From an uncultured Hyphomicrobiales bacterium (GTDB taxonomy: Bacteria > Pseudomonadota > Alphaproteobacteria > Puniceispirillales > UBA1172), in contig CAYNQW010000001.1 in the NCBI GenBank assembly GCA_964399415.1, forward strand, positions 1-52,335: a stretch of DNA of 52,335 nucleotides. Reading direction: 5' to 3'. Each line of letters begins with the position of its first letter. The stretch's first letter is position 1. Below are positions 7,425 through 37,154 of the stretch, one piece after another. Below the pieces are notes generated by a model. The model was not told the DNA's origin and searched no databases. It saw nothing but the letters and a program-made list of their open reading frames with translations. The position numbers and the translations under genes were made by a program.

Positions 7425-7432
7425 GGTTTACC

Positions 7433-7924: not shown

Positions 7925-7934
7925 TCCTAGAAAA

Positions 7935-11848: not shown

Positions 11849-11948
11849 CTTTTTCCCTACTCTTATTGCCCGTATTTTATTTGCCGCATTCGCATTCTTC
11901 TTTCATATTAATCATAGGTTTAATCTGACCACAAACAGGAAAAGCGAC

Positions 11949-13520
11949 ATGGCTGATCCATTAAATCAAGACATCCCCAGATTATCCCGCCGAAGTGGCG
12001 GTCGATCAGCACGAGTGCAGGCGCGCACAACGCCAAGCGAGCAGCCAAACCCCTGCCCTCCCGGTCAAATTGGCGGCCAATATAAGCCACTTACCGATGG
12101 TGATTTGGTCAAAATTATTGATGCCGCTTTCCATCTTTTAGACAGTATGGGGATGGGCGATGTGCCGCGCCGATTTCAAGACCTCGCGCTGGCCAAAGGC
12201 GCTCACCTCAATGCGCGTGGGCGGCTTTGTTATTCGCGTGCTTTGGTGGAAGAGACCATTGATCGCGCCGCCAAAAGTTTTGTCTTATATGGCCGCGACC
12301 CTAAGCATGATCTCGAAATTGGCGGTGAGCGCGTCTTTTTTGGAACGGGCGGCGCGGCGGTGCAAACCCTTGATCTGGATAGCGGCATTTACCGGCCTTC
12401 GACCTTACGCGATCTCTATGATTTCACCCGCTTGATTGATACCCTTGATAATGTCAGTTGGTTCACCCGATGCTGTGTCGCAACCGATATTCCGGATATC
12501 ACTGATTTGGATGTTAACACCGCCTATGCCTTGTTGCGCGGCACCACCAAACATGTCGGCACCAGTTTCACCTTAGCGGAAAATGTCGCGCCGATCATTT
12601 CAATGTTTGATCAAGCCCTCGGCGGGGAAGGTGCTTTCCGCAAGCGCCCTTTCTGCAAAGCGCATATCAGCCCGGTGATTTCACCCATGCGTTATGGTGA
12701 GGATGCGGTGGATGTCACTTTTGCTTGCATTGAGCATGGTGTTCCCATCAATGCCATCATCGCCGCGCAGTCTGGGGCGACAGCCCCTGCCCCATTGGCT
12801 GGAATGTTGGCGCAGACCACCGCCGAAACGTTAGCCGGCTTAATGTTGGTCAATTTGATCGAGCCAGGTTACCCCATGATCTTTTCCAATTGGCCATTGG
12901 TCATTGATTTGCGTACCGGCGCGTTTTGTGGCGGCGGCGGTGAAATTTCACTGCTAAACGCGGCGTCAGGGCAAATCGCCAACCATTTGGGCTTGCCCGG
13001 CGGCGTGGCGTCATCCATGGCGGACGCGAAAGCGGTGGATGCCCAAATGGGCATGGAGAAAGCAATCTCTTCCTTAGCCGCAGGGCTTGCGGGATCAAAC
13101 CTGATCTATGAATCCGCCGGCATGATGGCCAGCCTTTTGGGGGCGTCTTTCGAAGCCTTTGTGCTCGACAATGAAATGCTCAGCCATATCCACCGCACCA
13201 TTCGCGGCATTGAAGTTAATGACGACACCCTCAGCATTGAAGCGATTGAGCAAGCGGTTTATGGCGAGGGGCATTTCCTAGGCGGGGATGACACCATCGC
13301 CGCCATGCAACGCGATTATTTCTACCCTACCTTAGCGGATCGCACAGACCCAGACACATGGGTTTATCAAGGGGCAGACGATATTTGGACGAAAGCCCGT
13401 GATCAAGCACGGCAAATCCTCGCCAGCCATCACCCTGATTATCTTTCCAAACACGCTGACGCTTGGATTCGGGATCGCTTCCATATTTTTGCTGAACTGA
13501 ACAAACAAAATTTATTCTGA
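11949..13520 (+). CDS. MttB (trimethylamine methyltransferase) superfamily protein, non-pyrrolysine type
   Basis: 523 aa uninterrupted ORF with no in-frame TAG. MttB-family length and blocks such as FGTGGAAV, ISPMRYGEDAVD, SMADAKAVDAQMGMEK and FLGGDDT. Confidence 0.85.
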   Translation: MADPLNQDIPRLSRRSGGRSARVQARTTPSEQPNPCPPGQIGGQYKPLTDGDLVKIIDAAFHLLDSMGMGDVPRRFQDLALAKGAHLNARGRLCYSRALVEETIDRAAKSFVLYGRDPKHDLEIGGERVFFGTGGAAVQTLDLDSGIYRPSTLRDLYDFTRLIDTLDNVSWFTRCCVATDIPDITDLDVNTAYALLRGTTKHVGTSFTLAENVAPIISMFDQALGGEGAFRKRPFCKAHISPVISPMRYGEDAVDVTFACIEHGVPINAIIAAQSGATAPAPLAGMLAQTTAETLAGLMLVNLIEPGYPMIFSNWPLVIDLRTGAFCGGGGEISLLNAASGQIANHLGLPGGVASSMADAKAVDAQMGMEKAISSLAAGLAGSNLIYESAGMMASLLGASFEAFVLDNEMLSHIHRTIRGIEVNDDTLSIEAIEQAVYGEGHFLGGDDTIAAMQRDYFYPTLADRTDPDTWVYQGADDIWTKARDQARQILASHHPDYLSKHADAWIRDRFHIFAELNKQNLF

Positions 13521-13539: not shown

Positions 13540-15201
13540 TTATTGCTGAGCCGCAATATTTTTGCTTCGCTCATCCAGCAAACGGCTAAGCCATGTTGGA
13601 TCCATTTCTGGAACAGACCCCAACAACAAATCCGTATAGGGATGATGCGGCGGCGTAAAGACTTCAGATTTCTGCCCTTTTTCAACAACCAACCCATCTT
13701 TCATCACCACCACCTGATCGGCAATGGCGCGTACAGTCGCCAGATCATGGGTGATGAACATATAGGAAAGATTAAGTTCTTCCTGCAGTTTATCCAGCAA
13801 TCTGAGAATTCCTTCAGCGACAATTTGATCAAGAGCGCTGGTTACTTCATCACAAATGATGATGCTTGGCTCAGCCGCAATCGCACGAGCAATCCCGATG
13901 CGCTGCTTCTGGCCTCCAGAGAGTTCTGATGGCAACCGGTCAATATATTGATTAGGTTCCATCTCAATCATTCTCAGGAGATCACAAACCCGCTCATCAA
14001 GCGCCTTACCTTTGAGCCCAAGAAACATATTCGCTGGACGCCCAAGAAGTTCGCGTATTCGAAGTTTAGGATTAAGAGCCGTATCCGCCATTTGATAAAT
14101 CATTTGGATACGACGCAGTTGATCGCGGTTTCGATTTCCAAATTTGGACGGCAGTGTTTCGCCTTCAAACAGAACTTCACCTTCACGCGGGTTGAGAAGA
14201 CCGGTAATCACCCGAGCGGTGGTTGATTTCCCACTGCCCGACTCACCCACAACAGCAACGGTTCTGCCTTTGCTGATGCTGAAAGAAACATTTTTGAGAA
14301 CATCGACATGGCTTGAATAGCCGGCAGTGACGTTTCTTAATTCAAGCACAGGGGCATTTTTTTTATCTTCAATTTTTTCTTTGCGGACAAATTTACGAAC
14401 CGCCCAAAGGGATTTGGTGTAGTCATCTTGAGGCGATTTTAGCATTTTATTGGTCGATGCTTCTTCAACCTCATTGCCTTTAAGAAGAACCTTAATCTTA
14501 TCGGCCATTTGAGCAACCACGGCGAGATCATGGCTGATGTAAATGGCCGCCGTGTTAAATTCTTTGACAATATCGCGGATGGCGGCAAGAACTTCAATTT
14601 GAGTCGTCACGTCAAGCGCGGTGGTAGGCTCATCAAAAATGATAAGGTCTGGTCGGCATGACAACGCCATTGCCGTCATGGCGCGCTGAAGTTGCCCACC
14701 AGAAACTTGGTGAGAATAACGAAGCCCAAAATTATTTGGATCAGGCAGGTTCATCTTATCAAACAGTTCTATGGCATAAGACACCGCCTCATCACGCCCC
14801 ATGACACCATGCAATAAAGGCGCTTCAGCAAACTGATCAATAAGTTTATGGGCAGGATTAAAACTAGCCGCCGCGGATTGAGCGACATAAGCAATCCGAC
14901 GGCCACGCAAATGCCGCAACTGATCTTTGCTCTGCGAGAGCAGATCAATGCCATCAAAGACAATCGACCCTTCTGTAATCTTGCACCCATCGCGGGTAAA
15001 CCCCATCGCAGCAAGACCAAGCGTTGATTTCCCAGCGCCCGATTCCCCGATCAAACCCAGCACTTCGCCGCGATTAAGATCCAAATCGACCGAATTTACA
15101 ATATCAATCCAATCTTCATCACTGCGCCCCTTGATTGATACATTCCGCATCTTCAATAAAGGTTCTGGTTTCTTGGATGTTGGAGTGTTTTGACCGTTCA
15201 T
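13540..15201 (-). CDS. fused double ABC ATPase of a peptide/opine-type (Dpp/Opp) importer
   Basis: 553 aa with two complete cassettes: GESGAGKST/VSGGQLQR/IIFDEPTTALD and GESGSGKST/LSGGQKQR/IICDEVTSALD. Confidence 0.92.
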   Translation of the reverse strand: MNGQNTPTSKKPEPLLKMRNVSIKGRSDEDWIDIVNSVDLDLNRGEVLGLIGESGAGKSTLGLAAMGFTRDGCKITEGSIVFDGIDLLSQSKDQLRHLRGRRIAYVAQSAAASFNPAHKLIDQFAEAPLLHGVMGRDEAVSYAIELFDKMNLPDPNNFGLRYSHQVSGGQLQRAMTAMALSCRPDLIIFDEPTTALDVTTQIEVLAAIRDIVKEFNTAAIYISHDLAVVAQMADKIKVLLKGNEVEEASTNKMLKSPQDDYTKSLWAVRKFVRKEKIEDKKNAPVLELRNVTAGYSSHVDVLKNVSFSISKGRTVAVVGESGSGKSTTARVITGLLNPREGEVLFEGETLPSKFGNRNRDQLRRIQMIYQMADTALNPKLRIRELLGRPANMFLGLKGKALDERVCDLLRMIEMEPNQYIDRLPSELSGGQKQRIGIARAIAAEPSIIICDEVTSALDQIVAEGILRLLDKLQEELNLSYMFITHDLATVRAIADQVVVMKDGLVVEKGQKSEVFTPPHHPYTDLLLGSVPEMDPTWLSRLLDERSKNIAAQQ

Positions 15202-15208
15202 GTATCAA

Positions 15209-16132
15209 CTATTCCTTAAGTCCACTTGCGCGATGCAAAAGCCAATCAACGACAAAATTCACTGCAATCGTTAAGAAGGCGATCGCGCCCGCGGGAATAA
15301 GCGGAGTAATATCGCCAAAACTGATAAGTTCGGCATTGTCACGAACCATAGACCCCCAGTCAGCGGTCGGCGGTTGCAACCCTAAACCCATAAAGGAAAG
15401 CGCAGAAATCATGAGAAAGACGAAGCAGAATCTCAACCCAAATTCGGCGGCAAGCGGCGCCATCGCATTGGGGAGAATCTCACGCCTGATTAAGAAAAAT
15501 GAATTTTCGCCTCTTAATTTCGCGGCTTCGATATAGTCCAATTGAACAATATTAAGCGCAACGGCACGTGCTATTCGGAATACCCGGGTTGAATCAATGG
15601 TTGCAATAACCAGAATAAGGCTTAACGCCGATGTGCCAAATATTGTCAGCATCAACAGCGAAAAAATCAGTGACGGTATTGCCATAAGAACATCAACAAT
15701 GCGGCTCAAGGTCTGATCGACAATCCCTGATTTCAGCGCGGCATAAATGCCCAGAAGGGTGCCGATAAGGAAGGCTAGCGACGTGACAAGAAAAGCAATC
15801 CCCACTGTATTGCGAGCGCCGTAAATCAAGCGGCTGAAAACATCACGCCCCAGATTATCCGTGCCAAGCCAATAGGTGGATGACCAAGGCTCAAAAGAAC
15901 CGGCAAGGATATCCGATTCCCCATAAGGGGCAATAATCGGCGCAAAAATAGCGCAAGTGATATAAACAAAAATAACAAATATGCCGAGGCTGGCCGTCAG
16001 AGGAAGCGTCCGAAGAATTTTAGCAAGATTTCTTCCCACCAATCGCACCAGAATTTCACGAAACAAATACCCTACGCCCAGCGCCGCACAAACAGTAACC
16101 AAAACCCAGAGAAGAAAATTTAGAATAACCAT
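15209..16132 (-). CDS. ABC permease (DppC/OppC-like)
   Basis: BPD-type permease. I chose the ATG at 16132 (MVILNF...), preceded by AGGAG, because the longer track ORF (to 16252) overlaps the upstream permease. Confidence 0.88.
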   Translation of the reverse strand: MVILNFLLWVLVTVCAALGVGYLFREILVRLVGRNLAKILRTLPLTASLGIFVIFVYITCAIFAPIIAPYGESDILAGSFEPWSSTYWLGTDNLGRDVFSRLIYGARNTVGIAFLVTSLAFLIGTLLGIYAALKSGIVDQTLSRIVDVLMAIPSLIFSLLMLTIFGTSALSLILVIATIDSTRVFRIARAVALNIVQLDYIEAAKLRGENSFFLIRREILPNAMAPLAAEFGLRFCFVFLMISALSFMGLGLQPPTADWGSMVRDNAELISFGDITPLIPAGAIAFLTIAVNFVVDWLLHRASGLKE

Positions 16133-16145
16133 CTTCTTTCTCCTA

Positions 16146-17099
16146 TTATCGTTGCTGCATGAGGCGGGGGTTGGATATCGTAGAAATAATATCCGCGAGA
16201 AGATTGAGCCCGACATAAGCAGACGCAAAAACAAGTGACGTTGCTTGCACAACGGGAATATCCCTGAATTTCACGCCGTCAACCATCAGTTGCCCAAGCC
16301 CGGGAAACACAAAAACAATTTCAACAATAACAACACCCGTAATCAGATAGGCAAGATTAAGGGCAACCACATTTACGATAGGCGCAATGGCATTCGGCAA
16401 CGCATGCCAAGTGATAATTCGGGCAGGCTTGACGCCTTTCAGATGCGCCATCTCAATATAAGGAAGAGCAAGAATATTGATAATTGCCGCACGCGTCATT
16501 CGCATCATATGCGCCGTCACCACAAGCGTTAGGGTCAGGGCAGGCAAAAAACAAATATAGAGTTTTTCTAACAATGGCGTATTGGCATTGATATTTGCCA
16601 TGGATGGGAAATACCCCGTTAACGCCAAAAGATAGATCAGGATATAGCCGACAAAAAATTCCGGCATGGATATCGACGCCAAAGCAGACGCGTTTGAAAT
16701 TCTATCAAAATATCCATTGCGGAAAAGCGAGGCGAGCATGCCAAGTATAAGCGAAAGCGGCACCGCAATGCATGCCGTGTACAATGTCAAAAATAATGTG
16801 TTTTCAAGGCGCGGCGCGATCAACCCAATAATTGGTTTTCGTAAGGCGAGGGAATTTCCAAAATCACCTTGAAGAATCCCTCCAAGCCAATTCAAATATC
16901 GGATATGCGCCGGTAAGTCTAAACCAAGTTCGCGCCTAATTGCCGCCACCGTTTCAGGCGTTGCTTGTTGCCCGAGGATCTCTTGAGCAAGGTCTCCCGG
17001 CAAAGCCTCCACAGACAGGAAAATAAGCAATGACAACATAATCAGCGTAAGAACACCGAGTGCGAGCCGCTTAACGATCATGATCAGTAGATTGTTCAT
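16146..17099 (-). CDS. ABC permease (DppB/OppB-like)
   Basis: 317 aa with the typical DppB N-terminus IVKRLALGVLTLIMLSLLIFLSVEALPGD and 6 TM helices. Confidence 0.9.
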   Translation of the reverse strand: MNNLLIMIVKRLALGVLTLIMLSLLIFLSVEALPGDLAQEILGQQATPETVAAIRRELGLDLPAHIRYLNWLGGILQGDFGNSLALRKPIIGLIAPRLENTLFLTLYTACIAVPLSLILGMLASLFRNGYFDRISNASALASISMPEFFVGYILIYLLALTGYFPSMANINANTPLLEKLYICFLPALTLTLVVTAHMMRMTRAAIINILALPYIEMAHLKGVKPARIITWHALPNAIAPIVNVVALNLAYLITGVVIVEIVFVFPGLGQLMVDGVKFRDIPVVQATSLVFASAYVGLNLLADIISTISNPRLMQQR

Positions 17100-17178
17100 C
17101 TAATATGTTTATCCATCAATTAAAGATAATGAAATCAATTAAATAGGAATGCGCGGAAAAGATAACAATTTAGAAAAT

Positions 17179-17202
17179 GGAAAGCCATAAAAATGGCTTT
17201 CC
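17179..17202 (-). terminator. perfect 10-bp hairpin after the family-5 SBP gene (attenuator/terminator)
   Basis: GGAAAGCCAT-aaaa-ATGGCTTTCC. T-rich flanks on both strands. Lies between the SBP stop (17228) and the first permease start (17099). Confidence 0.6.
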
Positions 17203-17227
17203 AATAGATTTTTTTCGAGCCGATGGC

Positions 17228-18895
17228 TTAAGCAGACCACCAACGTCTAGAACAAAGATGACCGTCAAGTTCCCAGTTATTCGCAACTTGTCCAGGAACA
17301 CCCACGGAAGAACGGTAACCCATGATCTCACTCAAGAATACAGGGAGGATCAAGCCGCCATCGGTGTGAACAATACGCTGCATTTCAACATATTTTTCAC
17401 GACGCTTGGCTTCATCTGTTTCAGAACGAGCCTCAACAAGGAGTTTGTCAAAGGATGAATTATTCCAATGCGTGTCATTCCAATCAGCTTTTGAGTAATA
17501 AATCTGAGAGAAGACCCAATCTTCGGTTGGGCGGCCACTCCAGTAACAAGCTGACCATGGCTTGACCATCCAGACGTTTGACCAATATCCGTCATTCGGC
17601 TCACGAACAACTTCAATGTCAATGCCTGCCGCTCTTGCCGATTCACGCATCAGCGCGCCGGCATCAACAGCACCAGCGAAACCGGTATCAGCAGCATGGA
17701 ACTGCACCGACAAACTGCTCAGCCCAGCCTCTTTCAGGTAGAACTTTGCTTTTTCCGGATCATACTCACGCTGAGGCAATTCATCTTCCGTGGCGCGGAA
17801 GTAGTTAGCAGGACCAACAGGGCTGTCATTCCCTAACTGTCCATAACCAAAGAAGATTTTGTCCAGAAGTTCTTGACGGTTAACAATATGCTTCATGGCA
17901 TTGCGAACGTTTTGATTGGTGTATGGGTCCGCGTCACAAAGCATTGGCATTGTTGCTTGTTTATTCCCCGTCGAAATCAGCGTCTTCACGTTAGGCATAT
18001 TGCCAAGACGCTTTGCTGTCTTCGCTGGAACGTTGTTGATCGCATCAACCGCGCCTGTCGAAAGTGCTGACATACGAGCTGTTGGATCATTGATGCCCAA
18101 GGTTTCAATTTCGTCAAAGTAGGAATCATTGCCGGTGTTCCAGTAGTTTGCAAACTTCTTGGTTAGAGTCCGCACACCTGGCTCATGCTCAGCAAGAACA
18201 TAAGCACCAGCACCTACACCAGACTGCCAGTCAATGGTTTCGTCACCGTTTGAAGGGCAAATGTTGAGGTGATAATCTGACAGAAGAATTGGAAGGTCAC
18301 CATTACCTTCATTCAATTCAATGATGACACCATTCTTACCATCAGCACGGATTTCTTTAATCCCAGACACAACACCACTGCCGCCTGATTTTGAATCAGG
18401 ACCCATATGGTGGCGAATTGAATCCACAATGTCGGTTGAATCAAGCGTCTTACCATTATGGAATTCTACGCCCTGACGAACATTAAATTTCCATGTCTTG
18501 GCACCATTTGAAGGCTCCCAACTCTCAACAAGGTCACCTTGCACAGCACCATTTGGCATGATCTTTGTCATGTTTGGTCGAACCTGACCCATAGACACGT
18601 TGATCATGTATGCATCAAGAATCTGGCCTGGATCCAGCACATCGCTGGTGGCACCACCGGTAATCCCAAGTCTTAGACGTCCACCTGCTTTTGGTGTGGC
18701 GGCAAGCACTTCTTTAACAACCGTTGATGCACCGGTAAGTGATACACCAAGAGCCAGCGCTCCTGTCATAAAACCACGGCGCCCAATTTTACCTGAGGCA
18801 TAACTGGCCTGAAGATTATCTGCTTTGATCTGACTTTCCTTATCAGCAATCTCCGCAGAAATTTTGTATTTTTGGCAATTTTTGGATTTTTCCAA
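17228..18895 (-). CDS. family-5 ABC substrate-binding protein (peptide/nickel/opine type) with Tat signal
   Basis: 555 aa. Twin-arginine motif GRRGFMTGALALG. TTG start at 18895 with GGGAGG 5 nt upstream. The n-region before RR is unusually long (about 37 aa). Confidence 0.88.
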   Translation of the reverse strand: MEKSKNCQKYKISAEIADKESQIKADNLQASYASGKIGRRGFMTGALALGVSLTGASTVVKEVLAATPKAGGRLRLGITGGATSDVLDPGQILDAYMINVSMGQVRPNMTKIMPNGAVQGDLVESWEPSNGAKTWKFNVRQGVEFHNGKTLDSTDIVDSIRHHMGPDSKSGGSGVVSGIKEIRADGKNGVIIELNEGNGDLPILLSDYHLNICPSNGDETIDWQSGVGAGAYVLAEHEPGVRTLTKKFANYWNTGNDSYFDEIETLGINDPTARMSALSTGAVDAINNVPAKTAKRLGNMPNVKTLISTGNKQATMPMLCDADPYTNQNVRNAMKHIVNRQELLDKIFFGYGQLGNDSPVGPANYFRATEDELPQREYDPEKAKFYLKEAGLSSLSVQFHAADTGFAGAVDAGALMRESARAAGIDIEVVREPNDGYWSNVWMVKPWSACYWSGRPTEDWVFSQIYYSKADWNDTHWNNSSFDKLLVEARSETDEAKRREKYVEMQRIVHTDGGLILPVFLSEIMGYRSSVGVPGQVANNWELDGHLCSRRWWSA

Positions 18896-18932
18896 TTTAT
18901 CCTCCCTTTATAAATTACCCTTTATATAGCCT

Positions 18933-18972
18933 ATGTTCTAAACACAAAACTTTGCAAGTTTTTTATGAACAT
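18933..18972 (-). promoter_or_regulatory. nested inverted repeat (ATGTTC...AAAACTT-tgc-AAGTTTT...GAACAT); candidate operator upstream of the SBP gene
   Basis: Inner 7-3-7 palindrome at 18946-18962, inside outer 6-bp arms at 18933-18938 and 18967-18972. 38 nt upstream of the TTG start. Confidence 0.4.
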
Positions 18973-18978
18973 AGACCG

Positions 18979-19009
18979 CCTAAGATTTCAAATTCCTAAG
19001 TTTTCAAAT
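18979..19009 (-). repeat. tandem 16-bp direct repeat, 2 copies (CCTAAGATTTCAAAT t CCTAAGTTTTCAAAT)
   Basis: Read directly on the + strand. One mismatch between copies. Located in the 170-bp gap between the AA_synth gene and the SBP gene. Confidence 0.7.
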
Positions 19010-19065
19010 CCTCCTTTGTGGGTTGGTCGTTGTCATGATGATGAATGCTAGACATGCTTTCTCCG

Positions 19066-19671
19066 TTAGACGCTAGCAGGGTTATCCAGATCAGCCCCTA
19101 TTGAGGCGAGATCAGAATATCGGTCACCAATGCGGTGATGGGGTCGGCCTCGTGTTGCGCCGCCAAAGGCTGCGATCAACTCATTGCCTGCCGGCGCATC
19201 AGCAATATGCATTTGCACCGTCAGATAATGGGATCGACGCCCACTATCATTTTTGTCCATAAGAGGGATATTAATTTGGGTGTTTGCTGGGCCACGCGTG
19301 TTGGTAAAGCCAAGATACGATTTTCCGCCAACAGCCTTTCGGAAAAAATTGCCGAAATGAAGCGTGTGAATCAAAGCCGAGCCATGTTCAAGTTCACCGT
19401 CAATTCCAGACATTGATGCTTTGCCAAAAGCTTCAATATTCTCACCAGAACCACCCGCAAGATTGAGCATTTCTTCGGTTAACTTTTCTCCCAAAATAGG
19501 ACCAAACATTTTTATTTCCGGCATCAAGTCTTCAACATATCCGCGCCCAGCCCAAGGATTGCGAACAACCGCTGCCGCCCCGAAAATTTCAAGCGGCGGT
19601 GACGATTCTTTTTCCCCGTCAACAAGCACGATCTCTTTATAGGTTACAATTTTCCGAATAATCAGTTCCAT
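19066..19671 (-). CDS. amino acid synthesis family protein (AA_synth / DUF1185), function unknown
   Basis: 201 aa. The N-terminal pattern IRKIVTY.E......G.......L...AA.AVV.NPWAGRGYVEDL matches my memory of this family. Confidence 0.7.
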   Translation of the reverse strand: MELIIRKIVTYKEIVLVDGEKESSPPLEIFGAAAVVRNPWAGRGYVEDLMPEIKMFGPILGEKLTEEMLNLAGGSGENIEAFGKASMSGIDGELEHGSALIHTLHFGNFFRKAVGGKSYLGFTNTRGPANTQINIPLMDKNDSGRRSHYLTVQMHIADAPAGNELIAAFGGATRGRPHHRIGDRYSDLASIGADLDNPASV

Positions 19672-19714
19672 GTCCTTCTTCCCTAAATGCTAAGTTTAGT
19701 TACTAACTTTACCG

Positions 19715-20539
19715 TCAAGCATGCCCATCACTTTTTGCGAGAGGGGCGATAAACCTTACGAGGTGATCGTTGAAAATCTCCGGCGCTTCCATCATGGCCA
19801 TATGCCTCAATCCTTTAAGAACAACCAACTCTGCCCCTTTAATTTCACCAGCAATGGCGGCGCTCATGGCCGGGTGATTGCCAAAATCTTCATCCCCGGT
19901 CATGACCAGCGTCGGCATGGCGATTGGCGGCGTTGGCGAAATTAACTCATCCACCCCGTCAACGAGCACTTGATAAATGGGCGGGTATATGGCGCGGTCA
20001 TTCGCCATCACCCAATTTTTGACCTGACCCATGACCGCGGGGGCTTTGGTGCGAAAATCTTCGGTGAACCATCGTTCAATGGCGGCATCAACCGTTGCTT
20101 GAGGGCCGTGTTCTTCGGCTTGATAGACTCTCTGCTGGATGGCGTTATGTTCGTTGATTGTTCGTTGATGGGGGGAGTGCAACACCGCAAGCCCTGAAAG
20201 TTTTTCCGGCGCATCCATGGCGATCCGCCGAGCGATCATCCCGCCCAAAGAAAATCCTGCAACAATGATGCGTGGATAACCAAACTCATCCGCAACCTTT
20301 ATGGCCTGATCCGCAAAAAGGCTTAGAGATGGGGTTTCAGGCGGGGGTGGTGACGCGCCATGCCCGTATAGGTCATAAGTGATCACCGGCCCATATTCAG
20401 CAAGGGCATCAATCTGGGCGGCCCACATATCCTGATTAAGCCCAAGGCCATGGATGAGGAGAACAGGCATCCCTGTTTTGCCGCTATCATAAAGACGGCA
20501 TGACGTGCCATCTTTTGCTTTGCTTGCCTTGAATGCCAT
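19715..20539 (-). CDS. alpha/beta-fold hydrolase (3-oxoadipate enol-lactonase-like)
   Basis: HGLG oxyanion motif, nucleophile elbow GFSLGG, C-terminal GLRHMA histidine. The start at 20539 shares one base with the RidA stop (TGATG). The track ORF extends to 20560. Confidence 0.85.
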   Translation of the reverse strand: MAFKASKAKDGTSCRLYDSGKTGMPVLLIHGLGLNQDMWAAQIDALAEYGPVITYDLYGHGASPPPPETPSLSLFADQAIKVADEFGYPRIIVAGFSLGGMIARRIAMDAPEKLSGLAVLHSPHQRTINEHNAIQQRVYQAEEHGPQATVDAAIERWFTEDFRTKAPAVMGQVKNWVMANDRAIYPPIYQVLVDGVDELISPTPPIAMPTLVMTGDEDFGNHPAMSAAIAGEIKGAELVVLKGLRHMAMMEAPEIFNDHLVRFIAPLAKSDGHA

Positions 20540-20928
20540 CAATTGTTTTCCGATTTCCATGCCACCACTTCAACTTCAACCTTAACGTCTACAAGCAGAT
20601 CGCTGATCACCGCAGAACGCGCCGGCGGTTCCTCAGGGAAATATTCTGCATAGACTGAATTAAACCCCGGAAAATCATCGCGTGAGGTCAGCCAAACCAT
20701 GGCTTTAACGACGTCTGCCATCTCGCAATTGGCCAGCGCAAGCGTTGCCTTGATATCCTCAAGAACTGCACGGGTCTGATCTTCAATCGATCCATCGGTC
20801 ATGACCTGACCATCCTTCATCGGCACCTGACCCGTGAGATAAACAAAATCGCCGGCTCGAACCGCTCGCGAAAGCGATAGTTTCCGCCCATTAATAACAA
20901 GTGGCTCGCCGATGACCGTCTTGACCAT
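20539..20928 (-). CDS. RidA/YjgF family enamine-imine deaminase
   Basis: 129 aa. The blocks FVYLTGQVP, TRAVLEDIKATL and PARSAV...LLVDVKVEVEVVA are typical of the YjgF fold. Confidence 0.88.
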   Translation of the reverse strand: MVKTVIGEPLVINGRKLSLSRAVRAGDFVYLTGQVPMKDGQVMTDGSIEDQTRAVLEDIKATLALANCEMADVVKAMVWLTSRDDFPGFNSVYAEYFPEEPPARSAVISDLLVDVKVEVEVVAWKSENN

Positions 20929-21104
20929 AATTTGCCCTTCTCTTGATCGTTCACTGTTTAGGCTGATCTACTCTGAAGCCGTGCATTTGCAATTTTTCGG
21001 CATAAGATGACTAAAATTTTAAGTCTCTGCGCGTGTAACATCCTAGGCTTAACATCAGACATGTGTGATCATGCATGAATGAAACCGGATGGAAGGAACA
21101 CCAA

Positions 21105-22589
21105 ATGTCAGACCTCATTGATTATAAAATGTTCATCAATGGCGAATGGATGGACTCAAGCGATGGCAAACGTTTTGAGAGCATTAACCCGGCAACGGAA
21201 CAGCCATGGTGTACGGTGCCCGAAGCAACCGCAGATGACATTAATCGCGCGGTTGAAACAGCCCATCAAGCGTTCACATCCGGCGAATGGGCAAGCCTAA
21301 CCCCGACCGCCCGAGGAAAATATTTGCGCCGCCTTGCCGAACTTCTTGACCAGAAATCCGAACATCTTGGCCGTATTGAGACAATAGACACCGGTAAAAT
21401 GCTCAAAGAAACACGATGGCAGGCCAAATATATCGCAGAGTTTTTTCATTTTTATGCTGGATGTGCCGACAAGATCAGCGGCCAAACCTTGCCCATCGAC
21501 AAGCCTGATATGCTGACCATGACCCTCCGAGAACCACTTGGGGTTGTGGCCGCGGTCGTGCCTTGGAATTCACAATTGTTTCTTGTTGCCGTGAAGATTG
21601 GCCCCGCACTTGCCGCAGGCAATACGGTGGTGCTGAAAGCATCCGAACACGCGTCAGCCGCCATGCTTGAATTTGGTAAAATTATTGAGGAGGCTGGCTT
21701 TCCGAAAGGCGTGGTGAATATTGTCACTGGCCATGCTGACCCTTGCGGTAAGGTGCTGACCTCTCACCCGCTGGTTCAGCGGATCAGTTTTACCGGCGGC
21801 ACCAGCGCGGCAAAACATGTGGTGCGCAATTCCGCAGAGAATTTTGCTCAAGTATCGCTTGAATTGGGCGGCAAATCACCCTTCATCGTTTTTGGTGATG
21901 CCAATATCGAAAGCGCCGTGAATGGATCAATCGCCGGTATTTTTGGCGCAAGCGGACAGAGCTGTGTTGCTGGCTCAAGGCTGTATTTGCACAACAGCAT
22001 CGCTGATGAATTTCTTGACCGGATGCTGACACAAGCAAAGCAAATTCGCATCGGCGATCCTCTTGAAGAAGACACACAGATGGGCCCGCTTGCCACCAGC
22101 GCGCAGATCGATCATATCGAACGGCAAGTCAAACTGGCGCAAGAAGAAGGCGGAACCGTGCTGACCGGCGGCAAGCGTCCTAAGATGCCGAATGCCGGCT
22201 GGTATTATGAACCCACCATCATCGAATGCCCTCGCCAAGACATGACCATTGTGGATACCGAATTGTTTGGCCCGGTGCTAAGCGTGTTGCGCTTTGACGA
22301 AGAAGATCAAGTCACCACCCTTGCCAATGACAGTAAATTTGGCTTGGCGGCGGGAGTCTTTACCAAAGACAGCGCCCGCGCGCTCCGAATGACAAAATCA
22401 TTGCGGGCGGGCATCGTTTGGGTGAACACTTACCGTGTTGTTTCACCCATCGCTGAATTCGGTGGCTTCAAAGAATCTGGCTATGGCCGCGAAAGCGGTA
22501 TGCAGGCTATTTACGATTACACCAGACCCAAAACAGCATGGATCAATATTTCTGATGAACCCATGGCTAATCCCTTTGTGATGCGCTAA
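21105..22589 (+). CDS. NAD(P)-dependent aldehyde dehydrogenase
   Basis: Catalytic blocks ELGGKSP and GQSCVAGSR. The ATG at 21105 is preceded by GGAAGGA. The track ORF starts at 21075. Confidence 0.92.
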   Translation: MSDLIDYKMFINGEWMDSSDGKRFESINPATEQPWCTVPEATADDINRAVETAHQAFTSGEWASLTPTARGKYLRRLAELLDQKSEHLGRIETIDTGKMLKETRWQAKYIAEFFHFYAGCADKISGQTLPIDKPDMLTMTLREPLGVVAAVVPWNSQLFLVAVKIGPALAAGNTVVLKASEHASAAMLEFGKIIEEAGFPKGVVNIVTGHADPCGKVLTSHPLVQRISFTGGTSAAKHVVRNSAENFAQVSLELGGKSPFIVFGDANIESAVNGSIAGIFGASGQSCVAGSRLYLHNSIADEFLDRMLTQAKQIRIGDPLEEDTQMGPLATSAQIDHIERQVKLAQEEGGTVLTGGKRPKMPNAGWYYEPTIIECPRQDMTIVDTELFGPVLSVLRFDEEDQVTTLANDSKFGLAAGVFTKDSARALRMTKSLRAGIVWVNTYRVVSPIAEFGGFKESGYGRESGMQAIYDYTRPKTAWINISDEPMANPFVMR

Positions 22590-24679
22590 TCGTTGAGGGT
22601 TATCACCGCATCAACAGCAACAACCCCATCTTCCAGAATAAAGAGAGGATTGATCTCAATCAGGTCAATCCTCTCATCAACCATAATCATTTCAGCGAGA
22701 TCATGGATGGCGGTTATGATAGCGGCGCGATCACCGGCTGTAGCCCCGCGATAACCGTCGATGATGCGGCTGACCGTGAGACTGCGGATGGCGCGGTCAA
22801 TTTCCTCTCGGCCAGCCGGAAGGATAAGCGTTGTCGCTTCTTCAAGAATTTCCACAAGCACGCCGCCGCTCGCGATGGTAAGCAGAATCCCAAAAATAGG
22901 ATCACGCCGGAGGCTGACCATGAGTTCCGCCACCACGCCAGAGACCATTTTTTCGATCAGAAACCCTTTTTGCCTCGCCTTGGGGGCAAGGCGGCTGACG
23001 TCTTCCTTGATGCGCTGAACAGATCGCTCCAGCATCTCGCGATCCGTGATGTTCAAAACAACCGCGCCCATCTCCGATTTATGGGGAAGGTCGGGGCTGA
23101 CCATTTTGACGGCAAGGGGATAGCCCAGCGCATGGGGAAGTTCTAGCGGCAAATCACCTTCAGTAAAGAGGTTTTCAGGGATAGCAACGCCTGCCGCCGA
23201 CAGCATTTTTTTGGCTTCAACTTCATCAAGCGATACAGCCTTGGCGTTATCTTGCCGAGACGCAAGATGAAGCGGCGGTGGGGGCGATGCTAGGATTTCC
23301 TGCCTTCGCTTACCATATTTAACCGCAGAGGCGATGGATTTGACGCAATCGCCAATCCCCTGCATCGGCGCGATCCCATGTTCAATCAGAAAATCCCGGG
23401 TTTCGACATCCAGATTCTCTGCAATCGTGCTGCACACCGCGCCCGGGATGCCATGCGTCTTTGCGGCATTGAGAAAACTGATGGAATCATTGCGGTAATA
23501 TGGCTTGCTTTCATCCAGCCCTGCCGCCGGATAATCTTGAACAATCACCGTTACATCATATCCGTCATCAAACATGGCGCTGAACACCGGCTCGGTCTTC
23601 TCCGGCATGCCCCAGATCGGGGTGGTGTAGTCCAGCGGGTTTGAAACCGTGGCGGTAAGCGGCAACATCTCCCGCAACCTTTTACCAGCGGCAACGCTTG
23701 GACGCGGCAATTCTAGGCCTAGTTTTTCAGCATTATCCGCCAGCATCGTGGCACCGCCACCAGAACAAGCGAGACCCGCAAGAGCCGCACCAGAAGGGAT
23801 GCCGCTTACCGTGATGAATTTAAGGGTTTCAAGCAGGAGAGACGGCTCATCCACTCGGATGATCCCAAGCCGATCAAACAACGCATCATAAACCTCATCC
23901 GTTCCCGACAGTGACCCCGTATGGCTGATGGTAAGTTCACTTCCAATCCGAGACGTGCCTGTTTTCAGCGCAACGATAGGAATGTTGTTTTCAAGGGCTT
24001 TCAACGCCGCGGCCTCAAAAAGCCTGCTGTCTCGGATCCCCTCCACATGCAAGCCGATGGCACTGACTTCCGGCATCTCTGCAAAACAGTCGATGAAATC
24101 ATCTATCTTAAGCACCGCCTGATTGCCCAGCGACACCATATAACTCATAGGAAGAGACCGCTGAGCCATGGTCAAATCCGAGGATAACATCCCACTCTGG
24201 GTGATGATCGCCGCCCCGCGACCCGTAAACTTGCCGCCATGGGCAAAAGGCCAAAGCGCGACCTTATCGCGGTAATTGATCACGCCATAACAGTTAGGGC
24301 CGACCAGCGCCATATCCCCCGCCGCTTGGATCAATTCGGTTTCATAGGCGGCTCCGTCATCACCAATTTCACCAAAGCCTGCCGTGTAACAGACCGCTCC
24401 GCCTGCTCCCATTTGGTTTAATGTTCTTAGGCTTGCGATCGCCTGCTCCCTCGGAACCGCCACAAAGACGGCATCGGGGGCTTCGGGCAAATCTTCGATA
24501 CTCTTGAAACAAGGAAAGCCGCCGATGCTCTCACGTTTAGGATTCACCGGCCAAAACGGACCATCATATCCAATCCGTTTGCATTCTCCGGCAACCACCT
24601 CAGCATCACGCCCCCCAAGAACCGCAATATGCCGGGGACGAAGCAGCCTTAGCAGGTTATGGGCGCGGGACTCGCTCAT
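22586..24679 (-). CDS. ADP-forming acyl-CoA synthetase (CoA-binding + ATP-grasp fusion); candidate gamma-butyrobetaine/carnitine-CoA ligase
   Basis: N-terminal CoA-binding IAVLGG and succinyl-CoA-synthetase-like domains. C-terminal ATP-grasp GYPLAVKMVSPDLPHKSEMGAV. The start at 24679 forms an ATGA overlap with the acyl-CoA dehydrogenase stop. Confidence 0.85.
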   Translation of the reverse strand: MSESRAHNLLRLLRPRHIAVLGGRDAEVVAGECKRIGYDGPFWPVNPKRESIGGFPCFKSIEDLPEAPDAVFVAVPREQAIASLRTLNQMGAGGAVCYTAGFGEIGDDGAAYETELIQAAGDMALVGPNCYGVINYRDKVALWPFAHGGKFTGRGAAIITQSGMLSSDLTMAQRSLPMSYMVSLGNQAVLKIDDFIDCFAEMPEVSAIGLHVEGIRDSRLFEAAALKALENNIPIVALKTGTSRIGSELTISHTGSLSGTDEVYDALFDRLGIIRVDEPSLLLETLKFITVSGIPSGAALAGLACSGGGATMLADNAEKLGLELPRPSVAAGKRLREMLPLTATVSNPLDYTTPIWGMPEKTEPVFSAMFDDGYDVTVIVQDYPAAGLDESKPYYRNDSISFLNAAKTHGIPGAVCSTIAENLDVETRDFLIEHGIAPMQGIGDCVKSIASAVKYGKRRQEILASPPPPLHLASRQDNAKAVSLDEVEAKKMLSAAGVAIPENLFTEGDLPLELPHALGYPLAVKMVSPDLPHKSEMGAVVLNITDREMLERSVQRIKEDVSRLAPKARQKGFLIEKMVSGVVAELMVSLRRDPIFGILLTIASGGVLVEILEEATTLILPAGREEIDRAIRSLTVSRIIDGYRGATAGDRAAIITAIHDLAEMIMVDERIDLIEINPLFILEDGVVAVDAVITLND

Positions 24680-26749: not shown

Positions 26750-26858
26750 TTAAGAGTTTTATCGACTATAATCATTCACCTCGCTGTTTTTTTCAGTTGT
26801 AAATTTTTCGCCAATAGATCAAATTTTTGGATAGATTTGATGTATAAGGGCTAATCTT

Positions 26859-28906: not shown

Positions 28907-28907
28907 G

Positions 28908-29786: not shown

Positions 29787-29839
29787 TCTTCTCTGCTCTT
29801 TTGTGATTCTGAAATGAAAAACAATCCGAAAAAGCAATT

Positions 29840-29869
29840 TTTTTGACAAAGTTTTAAAATTTTTGACAA
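29840..29869 (+). promoter_or_regulatory. duplicated TTTTTGACAA boxes 20 bp apart (candidate -35 elements / activator sites for proXVW)
   Basis: TTGACA at 29843-29848 and 29863-29868. I could not find a convincing -10 hexamer at 17 nt, hence the low confidence. Confidence 0.3.
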
Positions 29870-35041: not shown

Positions 35042-35118
35042 CTTTATCTTTCCTCCATGTTTAATTTGCTTTCACATCCGGCTCGTTATCCGTCCGGTGA
35101 TAAGAATTATTCTGACTT

Positions 35119-36459: not shown

Positions 36460-36469
36460 GGTGCATCTC

Positions 36470-37153: not shown

Positions 37154-37154
37154 C

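Follow-up and report, generated by a model that had tools for sequence, protein, structure and literature searches.

A conserved ALDH, RidA, hydrolase and DUF1185 gene set beside carnitine-type genes, sister to genes of trigonelline breakdown

In a 52,335-nt stretch of DNA from an uncultured Hyphomicrobiales bacterium (assembly GCA_964399415.1, contig CAYNQW010000001.1; hereafter, the window), genes for an aldehyde dehydrogenase (ALDH), a RidA-family protein, a serine hydrolase, a DUF1185/AA_synth protein and an Opp-type ABC importer adjoin genes of carnitine/gamma-butyrobetaine (GBB) type. What do these proteins act on, and do they constitute one pathway? All genes that the initial annotation had placed at 13540–22589 are present, with strong family matches (Table 1), and its account of the junctions was confirmed from the sequence: the RidA stop and hydrolase ATG form a TGATG junction (an alternative hydrolase ATG lies 21 nt upstream, at 20560), 43 nt containing a GAAGGA Shine-Dalgarno sequence separate the hydrolase and DUF1185 genes, a 170-nt gap with repeats precedes the gene of the substrate-binding protein (SBP), and 146 nt separate the divergent RidA and ALDH genes. 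The ALDH and CoA-ligase ORFs converge and overlap by 4 nt. The longest ORF of the OppC/DppC-type permease extends to 16252; its likely ATG at 16132 lies 13 nt past the upstream stop. The same gene order was found in at least five other assemblies (L002/L110, L003/L086, L081, L090) and, therefore, is not a chance arrangement.

Table 1. Features of the analysed region of the window, with coordinates, strands and the basis of each assignment.
Feature	Position	Strand	Basis or description
Fused double ABC ATPase with oligo_HPY tail	13540-15201	-	two ABC_tran stretches and oligo_HPY (Pfam)
ABC permease, OppC/DppC type	15209-16132	-	BPD_transp_1 (Pfam)
ABC permease, OppB/DppB type	16146-17099	-	BPD_transp_1 and BPD_transp_1_N (Pfam)
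Hairpin with 11-bp stem	17178-17203		between SBP gene and first permease gene
Family-5 SBP (PepT/Opp-type), SBP_bac_5	17228-18895	-	Pfam SBP_bac_5, 205 bits
170-nt spacer, SBP/AA_synth	18896-19065	-	tandem 15-16-nt repeat, palindrome, 8-nt inverted arms
DUF1185/AA_synth protein	19066-19671	-	PF06684, 204 bits
Serine alpha/beta hydrolase	19715-20539 or 20560	-	Pfam Abhydrolase_1 and Abhydrolase_6
RidA-family enamine/imine deaminase	20539-20928	-	Pfam Ribonuc_L-PSP, 98 bits
Operator-like inverted repeat, divergent ALDH/RidA promoter region	20991-21018		AATTTTTCGGCA, 5 nt, TGACTAAAATT
NAD(P) aldehyde dehydrogenase (ALDH)	21075-22589	+	Pfam Aldedh, 560 bits
ADP-forming acyl-CoA ligase	22586-24745	-	CoA_binding_2, Succ_CoA_lig, ATP-grasp_5
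Acyl-CoA dehydrogenase (ACAD)	24676-25836	-	profile matches
BKACE (beta-keto acid cleavage enzyme)	25847-26749	-	PF05853, 344 bits
Operator-like motif, BKACE/regulator intergenic region	26802-26813	+	AATTTTTCGCCA
AraC-family regulator with DJ-1/PfpI (GATase1-like) sensor domain	26859-27917	+	HTH_18, HTH_AraC, DJ-1_PfpI
Short-form 3-hydroxyacyl/L-carnitine dehydrogenase-like enzyme (3HCDH)	27962-28969	-	best NCBIfam match PRK07066
Enoyl-CoA hydratase (ECH)	28908-29711	-	best match crotonobetainyl-CoA hydratase PRK03580
Operator-like motif, two direct copies 22 nt apart, ECH/OpuAC intergenic region	29836-29868	+	

The conserved unit consists of four genes, with ALDH divergent from RidA-hydrolase-DUF1185. 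In a census of 47 type-1 related loci, each at least 12 kb long, ALDH and DUF1185 were found together in 47 of 47, the hydrolase in 43, a CoA transferase in 36, RidA in 35, a luciferase-like monooxygenase (LLM) in 34, 3HCDH in 31, ECH in 30, AraC in 28, BKACE in 25 (a count limited by flank length), ACAD in 17 and the CoA ligase in 11. The linkage of the module is kept despite rearrangement in L017, L024 and L046, and a CoA ligase or CoA transferase adjoins it in nearly all loci. Carnitine-type genes (3HCDH, ECH, BKACE and the AraC-type regulator) are contiguous with the module in about two thirds of the loci, and in marine Alphaproteobacteria the module usually lies next to such genes. Carnitine genes are thus not the sole setting of the module: roughly one third of the loci have no carnitine-type gene in the available flank, and in L009 and L011, where carnitine genes are absent, it accompanies a stand-alone flavin reductase, an isochorismatase, an aminotransferase and a Liv-type ABC system. 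Mining of DUF1185-hydrolase-RidA-ALDH neighbourhoods in other genomes revealed two contexts, a carnitine/GBB-type or a trigonelline-type (tgn, N-methylnicotinate) cluster, and no generic aromatic-degradation context. These contexts bear out the earlier proposal of a catabolic unit linked to methylated-amine metabolism. Its presumed independence of the neighbours does not hold, since the module is usually contiguous with carnitine/GBB genes and apparently has an operator in common with them. Transcripts of ALDH, RidA, hydrolase and SBP are present in salt-marsh and seawater metatranscriptomes.

The initial annotation proposed an independent pathway in which an amino-acid conjugate enters through the Opp system and ALDH, acting as a 4-trimethylaminobutyraldehyde (TMABA) dehydrogenase, feeds GBB to the neighbours. 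The genes do lie side by side on one strand, and metatranscriptome pieces (18970-19111 and 17945-19050) show that the 170-nt spacer is transcribed. Distant homologues of the SBP adjoin MttB, DMGDH or BKACE/3HCDH genes, and the verified carnitine importer of R. pomeroyi belongs to the same ABC family (PMC10130141). The importer, however, is next to the module in no lineage but one SAR116-like subclade, represented by the window and four or five close relatives. In other Puniceispirillales with SBPs 83–85% identical, the same chromosomal spot has the importer together with an M81/MlrC peptidase, and the ALDH/DUF1185 module is on another contig. The transporter may be a separate, older resident of this site. 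Its SBP starts with TTG behind a GGGAGG Shine-Dalgarno sequence, carries a twin-arginine GRRGF motif, matches no NCBIfam equivalog and is closest in the PDB to an uncharacterised SBP (5u4o) and AgaA. The spacer contains the tandem repeat CCTAAG(A/T)TTTCAAAT twice (18979-19009), 8-nt inverted arms (18931-18938 and 18967-18974) and a palindrome (18946-18963), and no copy of the operator-like motif described below. Just beyond the transporter, the window encodes an MttB-family methyltransferase and a DMGDH-like oxidase.

The ALDH, 70–95% identical among type-1 relatives, matches no NCBIfam equivalog at its cutoff. Its best match is BADH-like (508 bits, cutoff 668), which would agree with a TMABA dehydrogenase; we rejected this match as diagnostic, since it is below cutoff and the tgn-type ALDH has the identical best match. 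At the four positions of the aromatic box of E. coli BetB and PatD, a feature of betaine-aldehyde and aminoaldehyde dehydrogenases, the window enzyme has S166, V173, G291 and Y453 and thus lacks three of these four aromatic residues. Arg454 is invariant, further basic residues (K111, R114, K118) are found in the channel, and the Y453-R454 pair is common to the window and tgn-type enzymes. The lack of an aromatic box and the invariant Arg454, together with a nearest relative of characterised context that is a tgn ALDH, make conversion of TMABA to GBB unlikely; an acidic C4 semialdehyde appears the more likely substrate. We consider the initial model as a whole highly improbable.

The other module proteins and the carnitine-type neighbours were compared with characterised families. 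RidA scores 94 bits against TIGR00004 (cutoff 106) and, aligned with E. coli RidA and RutC, shows equivalents of Arg105 (PARS) and Glu120. For the hydrolase, profile scores point to the enol-lactonase PcaD as the nearest family, yet place the protein outside it (TIGR02427, 158 bits against a cutoff of 256; RutD, 60 against 238), and the best PDB match is 3-oxoadipate enol-lactonase (2xua, E 9e-24). Its HG oxyanion motif, GFSLGG Ser, DEDFGN Asp and RHM His are near-invariant (at least 95% in 47 sequences). DUF1185, which has long near-invariant stretches in the sequences compared, matches two uncharacterised structures (2qtp, E 1e-25; 3byq, E 2e-18). Among the neighbours, BKACE is 75–96% identical in related loci, ECH scores 302 bits against PRK03580 (cutoff 500) and 3HCDH 312 bits against the L-carnitine dehydrogenase PRK07066 (cutoff 414). 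The 335-aa 3HCDH is a short form without the thioesterase domain, its alignment to the carnitine 3-dehydrogenase profile PRK07531 (495 positions) stopping at profile position 308, and the cluster showed no ORF for a hot-dog thioesterase. The hydrolase could then be the missing betainyl-CoA/carnitinyl-CoA thioesterase or an acylcarnitine esterase of an ordinary carnitine pathway, with ALDH, RidA and DUF1185 cleaning up reactive by-products and no new branch. Lineages free of CoA transferase have retained the hydrolase next to the CoA ligase, and the carnitine operons of A. baumannii and P. aeruginosa include genes for acylcarnitine hydrolases (PMC13631058). We nevertheless regard this explanation as unlikely: it accounts neither for the constant pairing of ALDH with DUF1185, nor for the homology of five module families to tgn proteins, nor for the L009/L011 context.

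The CoA ligase (51–85% identical, at the same position relative to ALDH in L002-L007, L010-L018 and L081) and ACAD, which co-occurs with both, form a unit conserved beside ALDH, and the window lineage has kept it. In Aestuariivirga and other Hyphomicrobiales (L010-L018), a block ACAD-CoA ligase/ALDH, divergent from RidA-hydrolase-CoA transferase-DUF1185, lacks BKACE, 3HCDH and ECH in the available flank. Such a self-contained block would suit vinylogous deamination of a gamma-amino acid, either a GABA-like compound or a derivative of GBB that has been demethylated: CoA ligase or transferase together with ACAD would produce a 4-amino-2-enoyl-CoA, RidA and DUF1185 would assist hydrolysis of its imine tautomer, CoA would be removed by hydrolase or CoA transferase, and ALDH would oxidise succinate semialdehyde. 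Every protein receives a role, and the MttB-family and DMGDH-like genes of the window could be accommodated; in the loci compared, however, these two are not conserved beside the module. The argument is purely chemical and leaves the monooxygenase and reductase of 34 of 47 loci unexplained, and we judge it very unlikely.

As the initial annotation stated, no regulator gene lies within 13540–22589. An AraC/DJ-1-type regulator is encoded 4 kb away. The ALDH/RidA, BKACE/regulator and ECH/OpuAC intergenic regions contain the same type of 12-mer. The pattern AATTTTT(N0-2)GNCA, derived from the same regions that were scored, has five matches in 52 kb, four of them in these three cluster promoters; only the recurrence across genomes is independent of its derivation. 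In an alignment of the ALDH/RidA intergenic regions of the window and L003-L007, the motif falls in a conserved block. L004 and L081 have it again at AraC-BKACE as well as at ALDH-RidA, and L006 has it at AraC-BKACE; the 12-mer AATTTTTCGCCA at BKACE/regulator is identical in all three. Because the motif is common to these promoters, the AraC/DJ-1 protein is a candidate regulator of the whole cluster, module included; its binding to the putative operator is what we infer from sequence.

We tentatively favour, as a real possibility short of an even chance, that ALDH, RidA, hydrolase and DUF1185 form a portable sub-module of a carnitine/GBB catabolic cluster, which handles the carbon skeleton that remains after a CoA-activated C4 betaine or amino acid has lost its amine. 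Release of an intermediate (a thioester, ester or enol-lactone) would fall to the hydrolase, RidA and DUF1185 would help an enamine, imine or lactol form to collapse faster, and ALDH would oxidise an acidic C4 semialdehyde of succinate- or malate-semialdehyde type to a dicarboxylate, probably under control of the AraC/GATase1-type regulator through the common operator. We infer both the substrate and the order of steps. In most relatives the oxidative step would be performed by the LLM with flavin reductase; fusion of the latter to a CoA transferase of succinyl-CoA type is frequent, and some relatives also have a Rieske oxygenase. Most relatives carry monooxygenase, reductase and CoA transferase, and the window has none of these and no Rieske oxygenase, leaving the source of the aldehyde in its organism unexplained. 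Other points also count against the proposed role. To our knowledge, neither the CDH/BKACE route nor the GBB-CoA route has a step that needs ALDH. RidA substrates are N-H imines, and these cannot arise from a quaternary amine. The window neighbours score only below cutoff for carnitine equivalogs. A precedent for the role is the carnitine operon of A. baumannii, where an oxygenase, malic semialdehyde dehydrogenase and hydrolase are encoded together (PMC13631058).

Judged by protein identity, the nearest relative of the module is the tgn cluster, which in A. soli has the order GntR, divergent from DUF1185, hydrolase, flavin reductase, LLM, ALDH, transporter and GabD-like ALDH. The statement that DUF1185 has no assigned function stands except for one link: TgnF reportedly stimulates succinate-semialdehyde oxidation (PMC7913881) and is reported to help TgnE. 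TgnE is probably the GabD-like ALDH, which is absent from the window, a further point against the proposed role; the window ALDH is only 30% identical to the GabD-like second ALDH of A. soli. It is 54% identical to the tgn-type ALDHs of Ruegeria and A. soli and belongs to one subfamily with the ALDH encoded directly after the monooxygenase in tgn-type clusters. The five common families might instead mark a truncated pathway of trigonelline type, acting on an N-methylated heteroaromatic or unsaturated betaine and co-located with carnitine genes only through one methylated-amine island (which also has the methylamine-handling genes gmaS and mgsABC, at a distance of 11 kb), the window lineage having lost the ring-opening oxygenase and the remainder scavenging ring-opened intermediates or decaying. 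The patchy presence of LLM and reductase within the type-1 clade speaks for this reading. Type-1 and tgn-type DUF1185 proteins, however, fall into cleanly separate sister clades (neighbour-joining tree), and the CoA transferase-reductase fusion and constant CoA-activating partner of type-1 loci have no counterpart in tgn. Type-1 proteins are 74–95% identical within the SAR116-like group and are transcribed, so decay is unlikely; we find this pathway quite doubtful. In evolutionary terms the module is sister to the downstream half of tgn, and this relationship, together with its usual place next to carnitine genes, points to an undescribed step. Identity to the A. soli or Ruegeria tgn-type proteins is 61–67% for DUF1185 (61.6% between the window and A. 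soli proteins), 52–56% for ALDH, 38–39% for flavin reductase, 34–37% for LLM and 25–33% for hydrolase, a gradient that fits pathways differing upstream and converging downstream.

The genes named in the initial annotation were all found at the positions it had assigned them, by ORF listing and profile searches. The TGATG stop/start overlap and the gaps of 43, 170 and 146 nt that it described can be read from the sequence, and the repeats in the 170-nt gap are genuine. The aldehyde dehydrogenase (ALDH) and CoA-ligase ORFs overlap convergently by 4 nt. The gene order of the window was found again in several independent assemblies. The window belongs to a SAR116/Puniceispirillales-like alphaproteobacterium; MAGs from this group hold the nearest loci, and the window sequence is present in salt-marsh, lagoon and coastal seawater metagenomes. 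Below, "module" refers to the ALDH gene and the divergent RidA, hydrolase and DUF1185 genes.

Genes of the module and of the adjoining Opp-type importer
Feature	Position	Strand	Basis
Fused double ABC ATPase	13540-15201	-	Profile search
ABC permeases, two	15209-16132 and 16146-17099	-	Profile search
Family-5 substrate-binding protein (SBP), twin-arginine leader	17228-18895	-	Profile search
PF06684 (AA_synth/DUF1185) protein	19066-19671	-	Profile search
Serine alpha/beta hydrolase	19715-20539 or 20560	-	Profile search
RidA-family protein	20539-20928	-	Profile search
Aldehyde dehydrogenase	21075-22589	+	Profile search

Alignment of the RidA-family protein with E. coli RidA revealed the PARS arginine (E. 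coli R105) and an equivalent of E120. The protein scores 98 bits against a cutoff of 27 for Pfam PF01042 and falls below the cutoff of the narrower TIGR00004 (94 against 106). In the hydrolase, the HG oxyanion motif and the Ser-Asp-His triad are near-invariant (at least 95%). Profile searches with the hydrolase and the DUF1185 protein, suggested earlier, were carried out: the former has the PcaD enol-lactonases as its nearest family, with a sub-cutoff score (TIGR02427, 157.7 against 255.85), and the latter belongs to PF06684. PcaD membership was rejected on this score and on the absence of pca genes from the window. Membership of the Rut system was also rejected (RutC 60.6 against 169, RutD 60.3 against 238.5; neither a luciferase-like monooxygenase, LLM, nor an isochorismatase in the window). 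Two structural relatives of the DUF1185 protein have been solved, both uncharacterised, with a fold that we take to be the fold class of RidA too. PDB searches with the SBP, the hydrolase and the ALDH returned no close ligand-informative relative.

Eighty loci around DUF1185 homologues were fetched, and the window proteins and additional queries were mapped onto them. The loci split into two architectures. When neighbourhoods of the DUF1185-hydrolase-RidA triad were mined, as had been proposed, the triad recurred together with a divergent ALDH, and this is the type 1 architecture. Most type 1 lineages have a family-III CoA transferase between the hydrolase and DUF1185 genes, fused in Rhodobacterales to a flavin-reductase domain (702 aa); an LLM gene lies directly downstream of the ALDH gene, and a Rieske oxygenase is added in some loci. 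Type 2 (14 of the 80 loci) has a regulator divergent from genes for DUF1185, hydrolase, flavin reductase, LLM and ALDH.

Unbiased clustering of every ORF from the 47 type 1 loci of at least 12 kb showed that ALDH and DUF1185 are the constant pair. ALDH was present in 47/47 loci, hydrolase in 43/47 and RidA in 35/47; the other partners were the CoA transferase (36/47), LLM (34/47), an ACAD (17/47) and a CoA ligase (11/47). Genes of carnitine type were a carnitine-dehydrogenase-like enzyme (3HCDH, 31/47), an ECH (30/47), an AraC-type regulator (28/47) and a beta-keto acid cleavage enzyme (BKACE, 25/47, a count limited by the 10-kb flank). The hydrolase is thus near-constant in type 1, and RidA, CoA transferase and LLM are frequent. 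A CoA-activating enzyme of some kind nearly always adjoins the module. No further conserved partner gene emerged from the clustering of the 47 loci, in which the leftover clusters were shadow ORFs.

The fused transferase (L055:7867-9975 and about 30 other Rhodobacterales loci) carries a TgnA-like flavin-reductase domain, and in its transferase half the similarity is far greater to succinyl-CoA:mesaconate and succinate-glutarate transferases than to CaiB (415 against 123 bits); we know of no description of such a fusion. The Rieske oxygenase (368 aa, L042:3964-5070, with homologues in L033, L044, L046, L049, L097 and L111) is encoded next to the ALDH gene, between it and the LLM gene where LLM is present. 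Its best PDB match is the carnitine monooxygenase CntA, over the N-terminal 190 residues only (E 1e-27), and a CntA identity was rejected, as was typical group-V membership, with a Tyr and a Leu in place of Cys206 and Cys209 of CntA.

The window and its SAR116-like relatives are a stripped version of type 1. Mapping of the queries detected no CoA transferase, flavin reductase, LLM or Rieske protein in them, and tblastn with type 1 and trigonelline (tgn)-type queries found no LLM or flavin reductase (TgnAB-like) in the 52-kb window. In the SAR116-like loci, the ALDH gene faces convergent genes for an ACAD and an ADP-forming CoA ligase.

The trigonelline catabolic cluster tgn of Acinetobacter baylyi ADP1 was reportedly described by Perchat and co-workers in 2018. 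We made the comparison with tgn through the A. soli locus L270 and type 2 loci of Ruegeria, Paraburkholderia and Caballeronia. Acinetobacter DUF1185 proteins are 81-86% identical to the Paraburkholderia type 2 protein, and the A. soli locus has genes in the type 2 order and, after them, a transporter and a GabD-like ALDH, which matches the published account of the A. baylyi cluster. We infer that the LLM-adjacent ALDH of the A. soli locus is TgnC and the GabD-like one TgnE. TgnF is the DUF1185 protein and is reported to stimulate TgnE-dependent succinate-semialdehyde oxidation (PMC7913881).

Between type 1 and tgn-type proteins, identity falls from 61-67% for DUF1185 and 52-56% for ALDH to 38-39% for the reductase, 34-37% for LLM and 25-33% for the hydrolase. 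Such a gradient is expected for pathways with different substrates and similar late intermediates; those of tgn are succinate-semialdehyde derivatives. The window DUF1185 protein is 61.6% identical to that of the A. soli tgn cluster. Since type 1 and tgn-type DUF1185 proteins form clean sister clades in a neighbour-joining tree, it is probably a TgnF paralogue and not an orthologue. The window hydrolase has the fold of TgnD-type enzymes and a Ser-Asp-His triad, but an identity of only 25-33%. The single ALDH of the window is 30% identical to the GabD-like ALDH of A. soli and 36% to E. coli GabD, and no GabD-like SSADH (probable TgnE) was found there. A truncated trigonelline-like pathway would draw on this kinship; with the two clades separate, we consider it improbable.

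Substrate specificity of the ALDH was addressed by aligning 54 type 1 and 14 tgn-type enzymes with E. coli BetB, PatD and GabD. The substrates of BetB and PatD are cationic aminoaldehydes, and residues Y160, W167, W285 and W456 of spinach BADH form an aromatic box that we take to be the ammonium-group site, with its equivalents at the aligned positions 166, 173, 291 and 453. These are Y, W, F and W in BetB, Y, W, Y and H in PatD, F, R, R and G in GabD, and S, V, G and Y in the window and type 1, where the four residues are kept in at least 96% of the 54 sequences. The alignment shows no aromatic box in the window or type 1 ALDHs, and Arg173 and Arg291 of GabD are missing from the window enzyme. 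The pocket residues thus place it in neither the BADH/TMABA type nor the GabD type. An invariant Y453-R454 pair is common to type 1 and tgn-type ALDHs, and type 1 adds K111, R114 and K118 at the channel mouth. From these residues, a carboxylate-bearing aldehyde would be the more natural substrate.

The initial annotation had suggested that the ALDH makes gamma-butyrobetaine (GBB) from 4-trimethylaminobutyraldehyde (TMABA). The best HMM match is indeed BADH-like, but both scores are below cutoff (TIGR01804, 508.5 against 668.6; PRK13252, 470.6 against 593), and this match is also common to tgn-type ALDHs. On the pocket residues, a TMABA/BADH reading of the enzyme was rejected, and the pathway model built on it is very improbable. 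A BADH-like best match beside GBB genes does not make a TMABA dehydrogenase, and a tempting annotation is thereby corrected.

In about two-thirds of type 1 loci the module is contiguous with carnitine-type genes, and the contiguity is kept despite a rearranged order in L017, L024 and L046. Best matches of the window neighbours are L-carnitine dehydrogenase, crotonobetainyl-CoA hydratase, BKACE, an AraC regulator with a DJ-1/GATase1-like domain and an OpuAC-type ABC system. NCBIfam equivalog scores are below cutoff (PRK07066, 312 against 414; PRK03580, 302 against 500), and the BKACE has a Pfam match only. The linkage is not universal: Aestuariivirga-type loci have only an ACAD, a CoA ligase and an ABC system in the flank covered, and in L009 and L011 the companions of the module are a Liv-type ABC transporter, an isochorismatase, an aminotransferase and a stand-alone flavin reductase. 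Such variation marks the module as portable. In the SAR116 single-cell locus (L011:19-13951) the isochorismatase is of the RutB family and the aminotransferase of class I/II, a methyltransferase and a family-III CoA transferase are also present, and there is neither an LLM nor, within 10 kb, any carnitine-type gene.

The carnitine-dehydrogenase-like gene of the window (27962-28969) is of the short type, which lacks a thioesterase domain, and the carnitine-type cluster has no evident hot-dog thioesterase ORF. CoA release from the BKACE product must come from something else. One reading gives the genes of the module separate housekeeping roles in an ordinary carnitine pathway, as a thioesterase or acylcarnitine esterase and clean-up enzymes; we regard it as unlikely. 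None of the described carnitine routes, to our knowledge, needs these enzymes. Directly after the OpuAC-type ABC genes lie gmaS and mgsABC-like genes (33734-38048), the route of methylamine assimilation via gamma-glutamylmethylamide and N-methylglutamate, which fits an island whose pathways release methylamine.

The motif AATTTTT(N0-2)GNCA occurs five times in the 52-kb window, four of the copies lying in the ALDH/RidA, BKACE/regulator and ECH/OpuAC intergenic regions. In the ALDH/RidA region the motif is arranged as an inverted repeat, and this is the sole conserved block when the region is aligned across six further genomes. L004 and L081 carry the same 12-mer in the regulator-BKACE region as well as in the ALDH-RidA region, and L006 carries it in the former. 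Its sharing and recurrence make the regulator of the cluster a candidate for control of the module, and the sequence pattern points to such control by the AraC-type protein; since the motif was derived from these very regions, the only independent support is the recurrence across genomes. A sigma-70 consensus scan, uninformative for this organism, detected no promoter-like site in any of the intergenic regions, and shuffled sequences gave more sites in total.

The Opp-type importer had been counted as part of the module. Its PepT/Opp-type parts are complete (family-5 SBP, two BPD_transp_1 permeases, ATPase with oligo_HPY tail). Inclusion in the module did not stand, as the importer adjoins it in one subclade only (the window, L002/L110, L003/L086, L081 and L090) and has an M81 peptidase as partner elsewhere. 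Other Puniceispirillales have SBPs 83-85% identical and the transporter at the same chromosomal site, between TauE/Alph_Pro_TM/small-ABC genes and AP-endonuclease-like/desaturase genes; there it is followed by an M81/MlrC-type peptidase, and the module and carnitine genes lie on another contig of the same MAG. The window looks like an old transporter site at which methylated-amine genes were inserted on both sides and the peptidase was lost. Comparison of window positions 5755-9312 and 38105-41857 with L087:6079-20855 places about 29 kb of methylated-amine genes (DMGDH, MttB, the module, carnitine-type genes, the OpuAC ABC system, gmaS and mgsABC) at the transporter and peptidase site. With the transporter inverted and the peptidase gone, the site is a hot spot of rearrangement.

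Distant SBP homologues (43-61%) lie beside MttB-family genes (11/153 loci, including Desulfobacterales), DMGDH-like genes or BKACE/3HCDH genes; this proximity to methylated-amine genes would count against pure coincidence. On the far side of the transporter, the window encodes a DMGDH-like oxidase and an uninterrupted MttB-family methyltransferase (9434-13520). A gammaproteobacterial locus (L253:10040-16000) has SBP, MttB (51%) and DMGDH (40%) in a row, mirroring this left flank. The methyltransferase, and not the module, may be what the transporter serves. A Roseobacter-group SBP subfamily (L191-L250, e.g. L191:5058-11605), 43-46% identical to that of the window, is linked in 43/79 loci to another alpha/beta hydrolase of 344 aa, encoded about 5 kb upstream. 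The experimentally verified carnitine importer CntTUVW of R. pomeroyi (SPO2995-2998; PMC10130141) is, like the window importer, a four-gene system of the peptide/nickel/opine ABC family; this likeness of family and gene number would also speak against pure coincidence, whereas the window's SBP type is the one whose 83-85% identical relatives are paired with the peptidase.

The DUF1185-SBP spacer contains no copy of the operator-like motif. Metatranscriptome pieces cover it (18970-19111 and 17945-19050), and SBP transcripts are more abundant than those of DUF1185; read-through from DUF1185 and a separate start are both possible. Each copy of a tandem repeat at 18979-19017 is a three-codon mini-ORF on the minus strand (TTG AAA ACT TAG and TTG AAA TCT TAG), the first preceded by the Shine-Dalgarno-like AAGGAGGA; these could be a leader/attenuator element or chance. 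Between the SBP and first permease genes lies a perfect hairpin with an 11-bp stem and T-runs on both strands (17178-17203), and metatranscriptome depth is lower on its permease side than on its SBP side.

We tentatively propose that the module is part of a carnitine/GBB regulon, in which it would handle the C4 skeleton after amine removal from a CoA-activated substrate. The hydrolase would free an intermediate, RidA and DUF1185 would make an enamine, imine or lactol form break down faster, and the ALDH would make a dicarboxylate; a flavin monooxygenase would supply the oxidative step in most relatives. The main weakness of this model is that the window lineage has no oxygenase, which leaves the aldehyde unaccounted for there. 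Vinylogous deamination of a gamma-amino-acyl-CoA, by way of the ACAD and a CoA-activating enzyme, is an alternative; set beside the LLM so frequent in type 1 loci, it appears improbable.

Extended to a whole route, the proposed C4-skeleton role would become an undescribed tgn-like branch of aerobic carnitine/GBB catabolism in marine Alphaproteobacteria, a rather doubtful prospect. After CoA activation of the betaine, most lineages would cleave off the amine with a luciferase-type flavin monooxygenase, and SAR116-like ones through an ACAD-dependent route; the hydrolase, RidA, DUF1185 and the TgnC-like ALDH would then convert the C4 skeleton to succinate or malate. If true, DUF1185 would be a general helper for acid-semialdehyde, enamine or lactol intermediates, and marine methylated amines would have a biological source not recognised before. 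Carnitine, GBB and related betaines are plentiful metabolites in plankton, and the oceanic release of trimethylamine and methylamine is controlled by how bacteria break them down. Genomes of SAR116, the Roseobacter group and Hyphomicrobiales conserve the four-gene set next to carnitine genes, and it is expressed in situ; its role, once known, would fill a gap in a widespread pathway. DUF1185, with solved structures and one biochemical hint only, would gain a second functional context. The Roseobacter version, with its CoA-transferase/flavin-reductase fusion and partner LLM, offers concrete enzymological targets.

Among known systems, carnitine/GBB catabolism (CDH, BKACE and CdhR in Pseudomonas; the bco/CDH route of Sinorhizobium meliloti, reportedly described by Bazire and co-workers in 2019) has the same families as the window neighbours, namely short CDH-like enzyme, BKACE, AraC/GATase1-like regulator, ECH, ACAD, CoA ligase and OpuAC-type ABC system. 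The module shares the operator-like motif with these genes; the window's carnitine-type enzymes differ in falling below the equivalog cutoffs. We know of no described carnitine/GBB pathway in which an ALDH, RidA, alpha/beta hydrolase or DUF1185 takes part. Full-text literature searches found no paper connecting DUF1185, RidA or such an ALDH with carnitine/GBB catabolism, and nothing relevant on carnitine/GBB with LLM.

The A. baumannii carnitine operon encodes CntAB oxygenase, malic semialdehyde dehydrogenase, acylcarnitine hydrolase and D-malate dehydrogenase (PMC13631058). Compared by description, it follows the same logic of oxygenase, acid-semialdehyde dehydrogenase and hydrolase as LLM- or Rieske-bearing type 1 loci; it lacks DUF1185 and RidA, whereas the window lacks an oxygenase. 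The homarine operon homABCDER (PMC13236597) was rejected as a counterpart, having other gene content without hydrolase, RidA or DUF1185. The E. coli Rut system (RutA, RutF, RutC, RutD) uses the same set of LLM, flavin reductase, RidA-family protein and alpha/beta hydrolase to convert an enamine to a semialdehyde. Identities are low (RidA 32% to RutC; hydrolase 29% to RutD over 133 residues; LLM 28% to RutA over 152), and RutB and RutE have no counterpart in the window.

The tgn cluster has an LLM and a reductase and the window has neither; RidA and a CoA-activating enzyme are found in type 1 only, a GabD-like dehydrogenase and a DAO-type oxidoreductase in tgn only, and the regulator is AraC-type in type 1 as opposed to GntR or LysR in tgn. 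On the other hand, tgn and the window both have DUF1185, an ALDH of the same subfamily and a serine alpha/beta hydrolase, most type 1 relatives also share LLM and flavin reductase with tgn, and both systems concern N-methylated betaines. All families of the module are known, and its architecture can be recognised as a variant of tgn.
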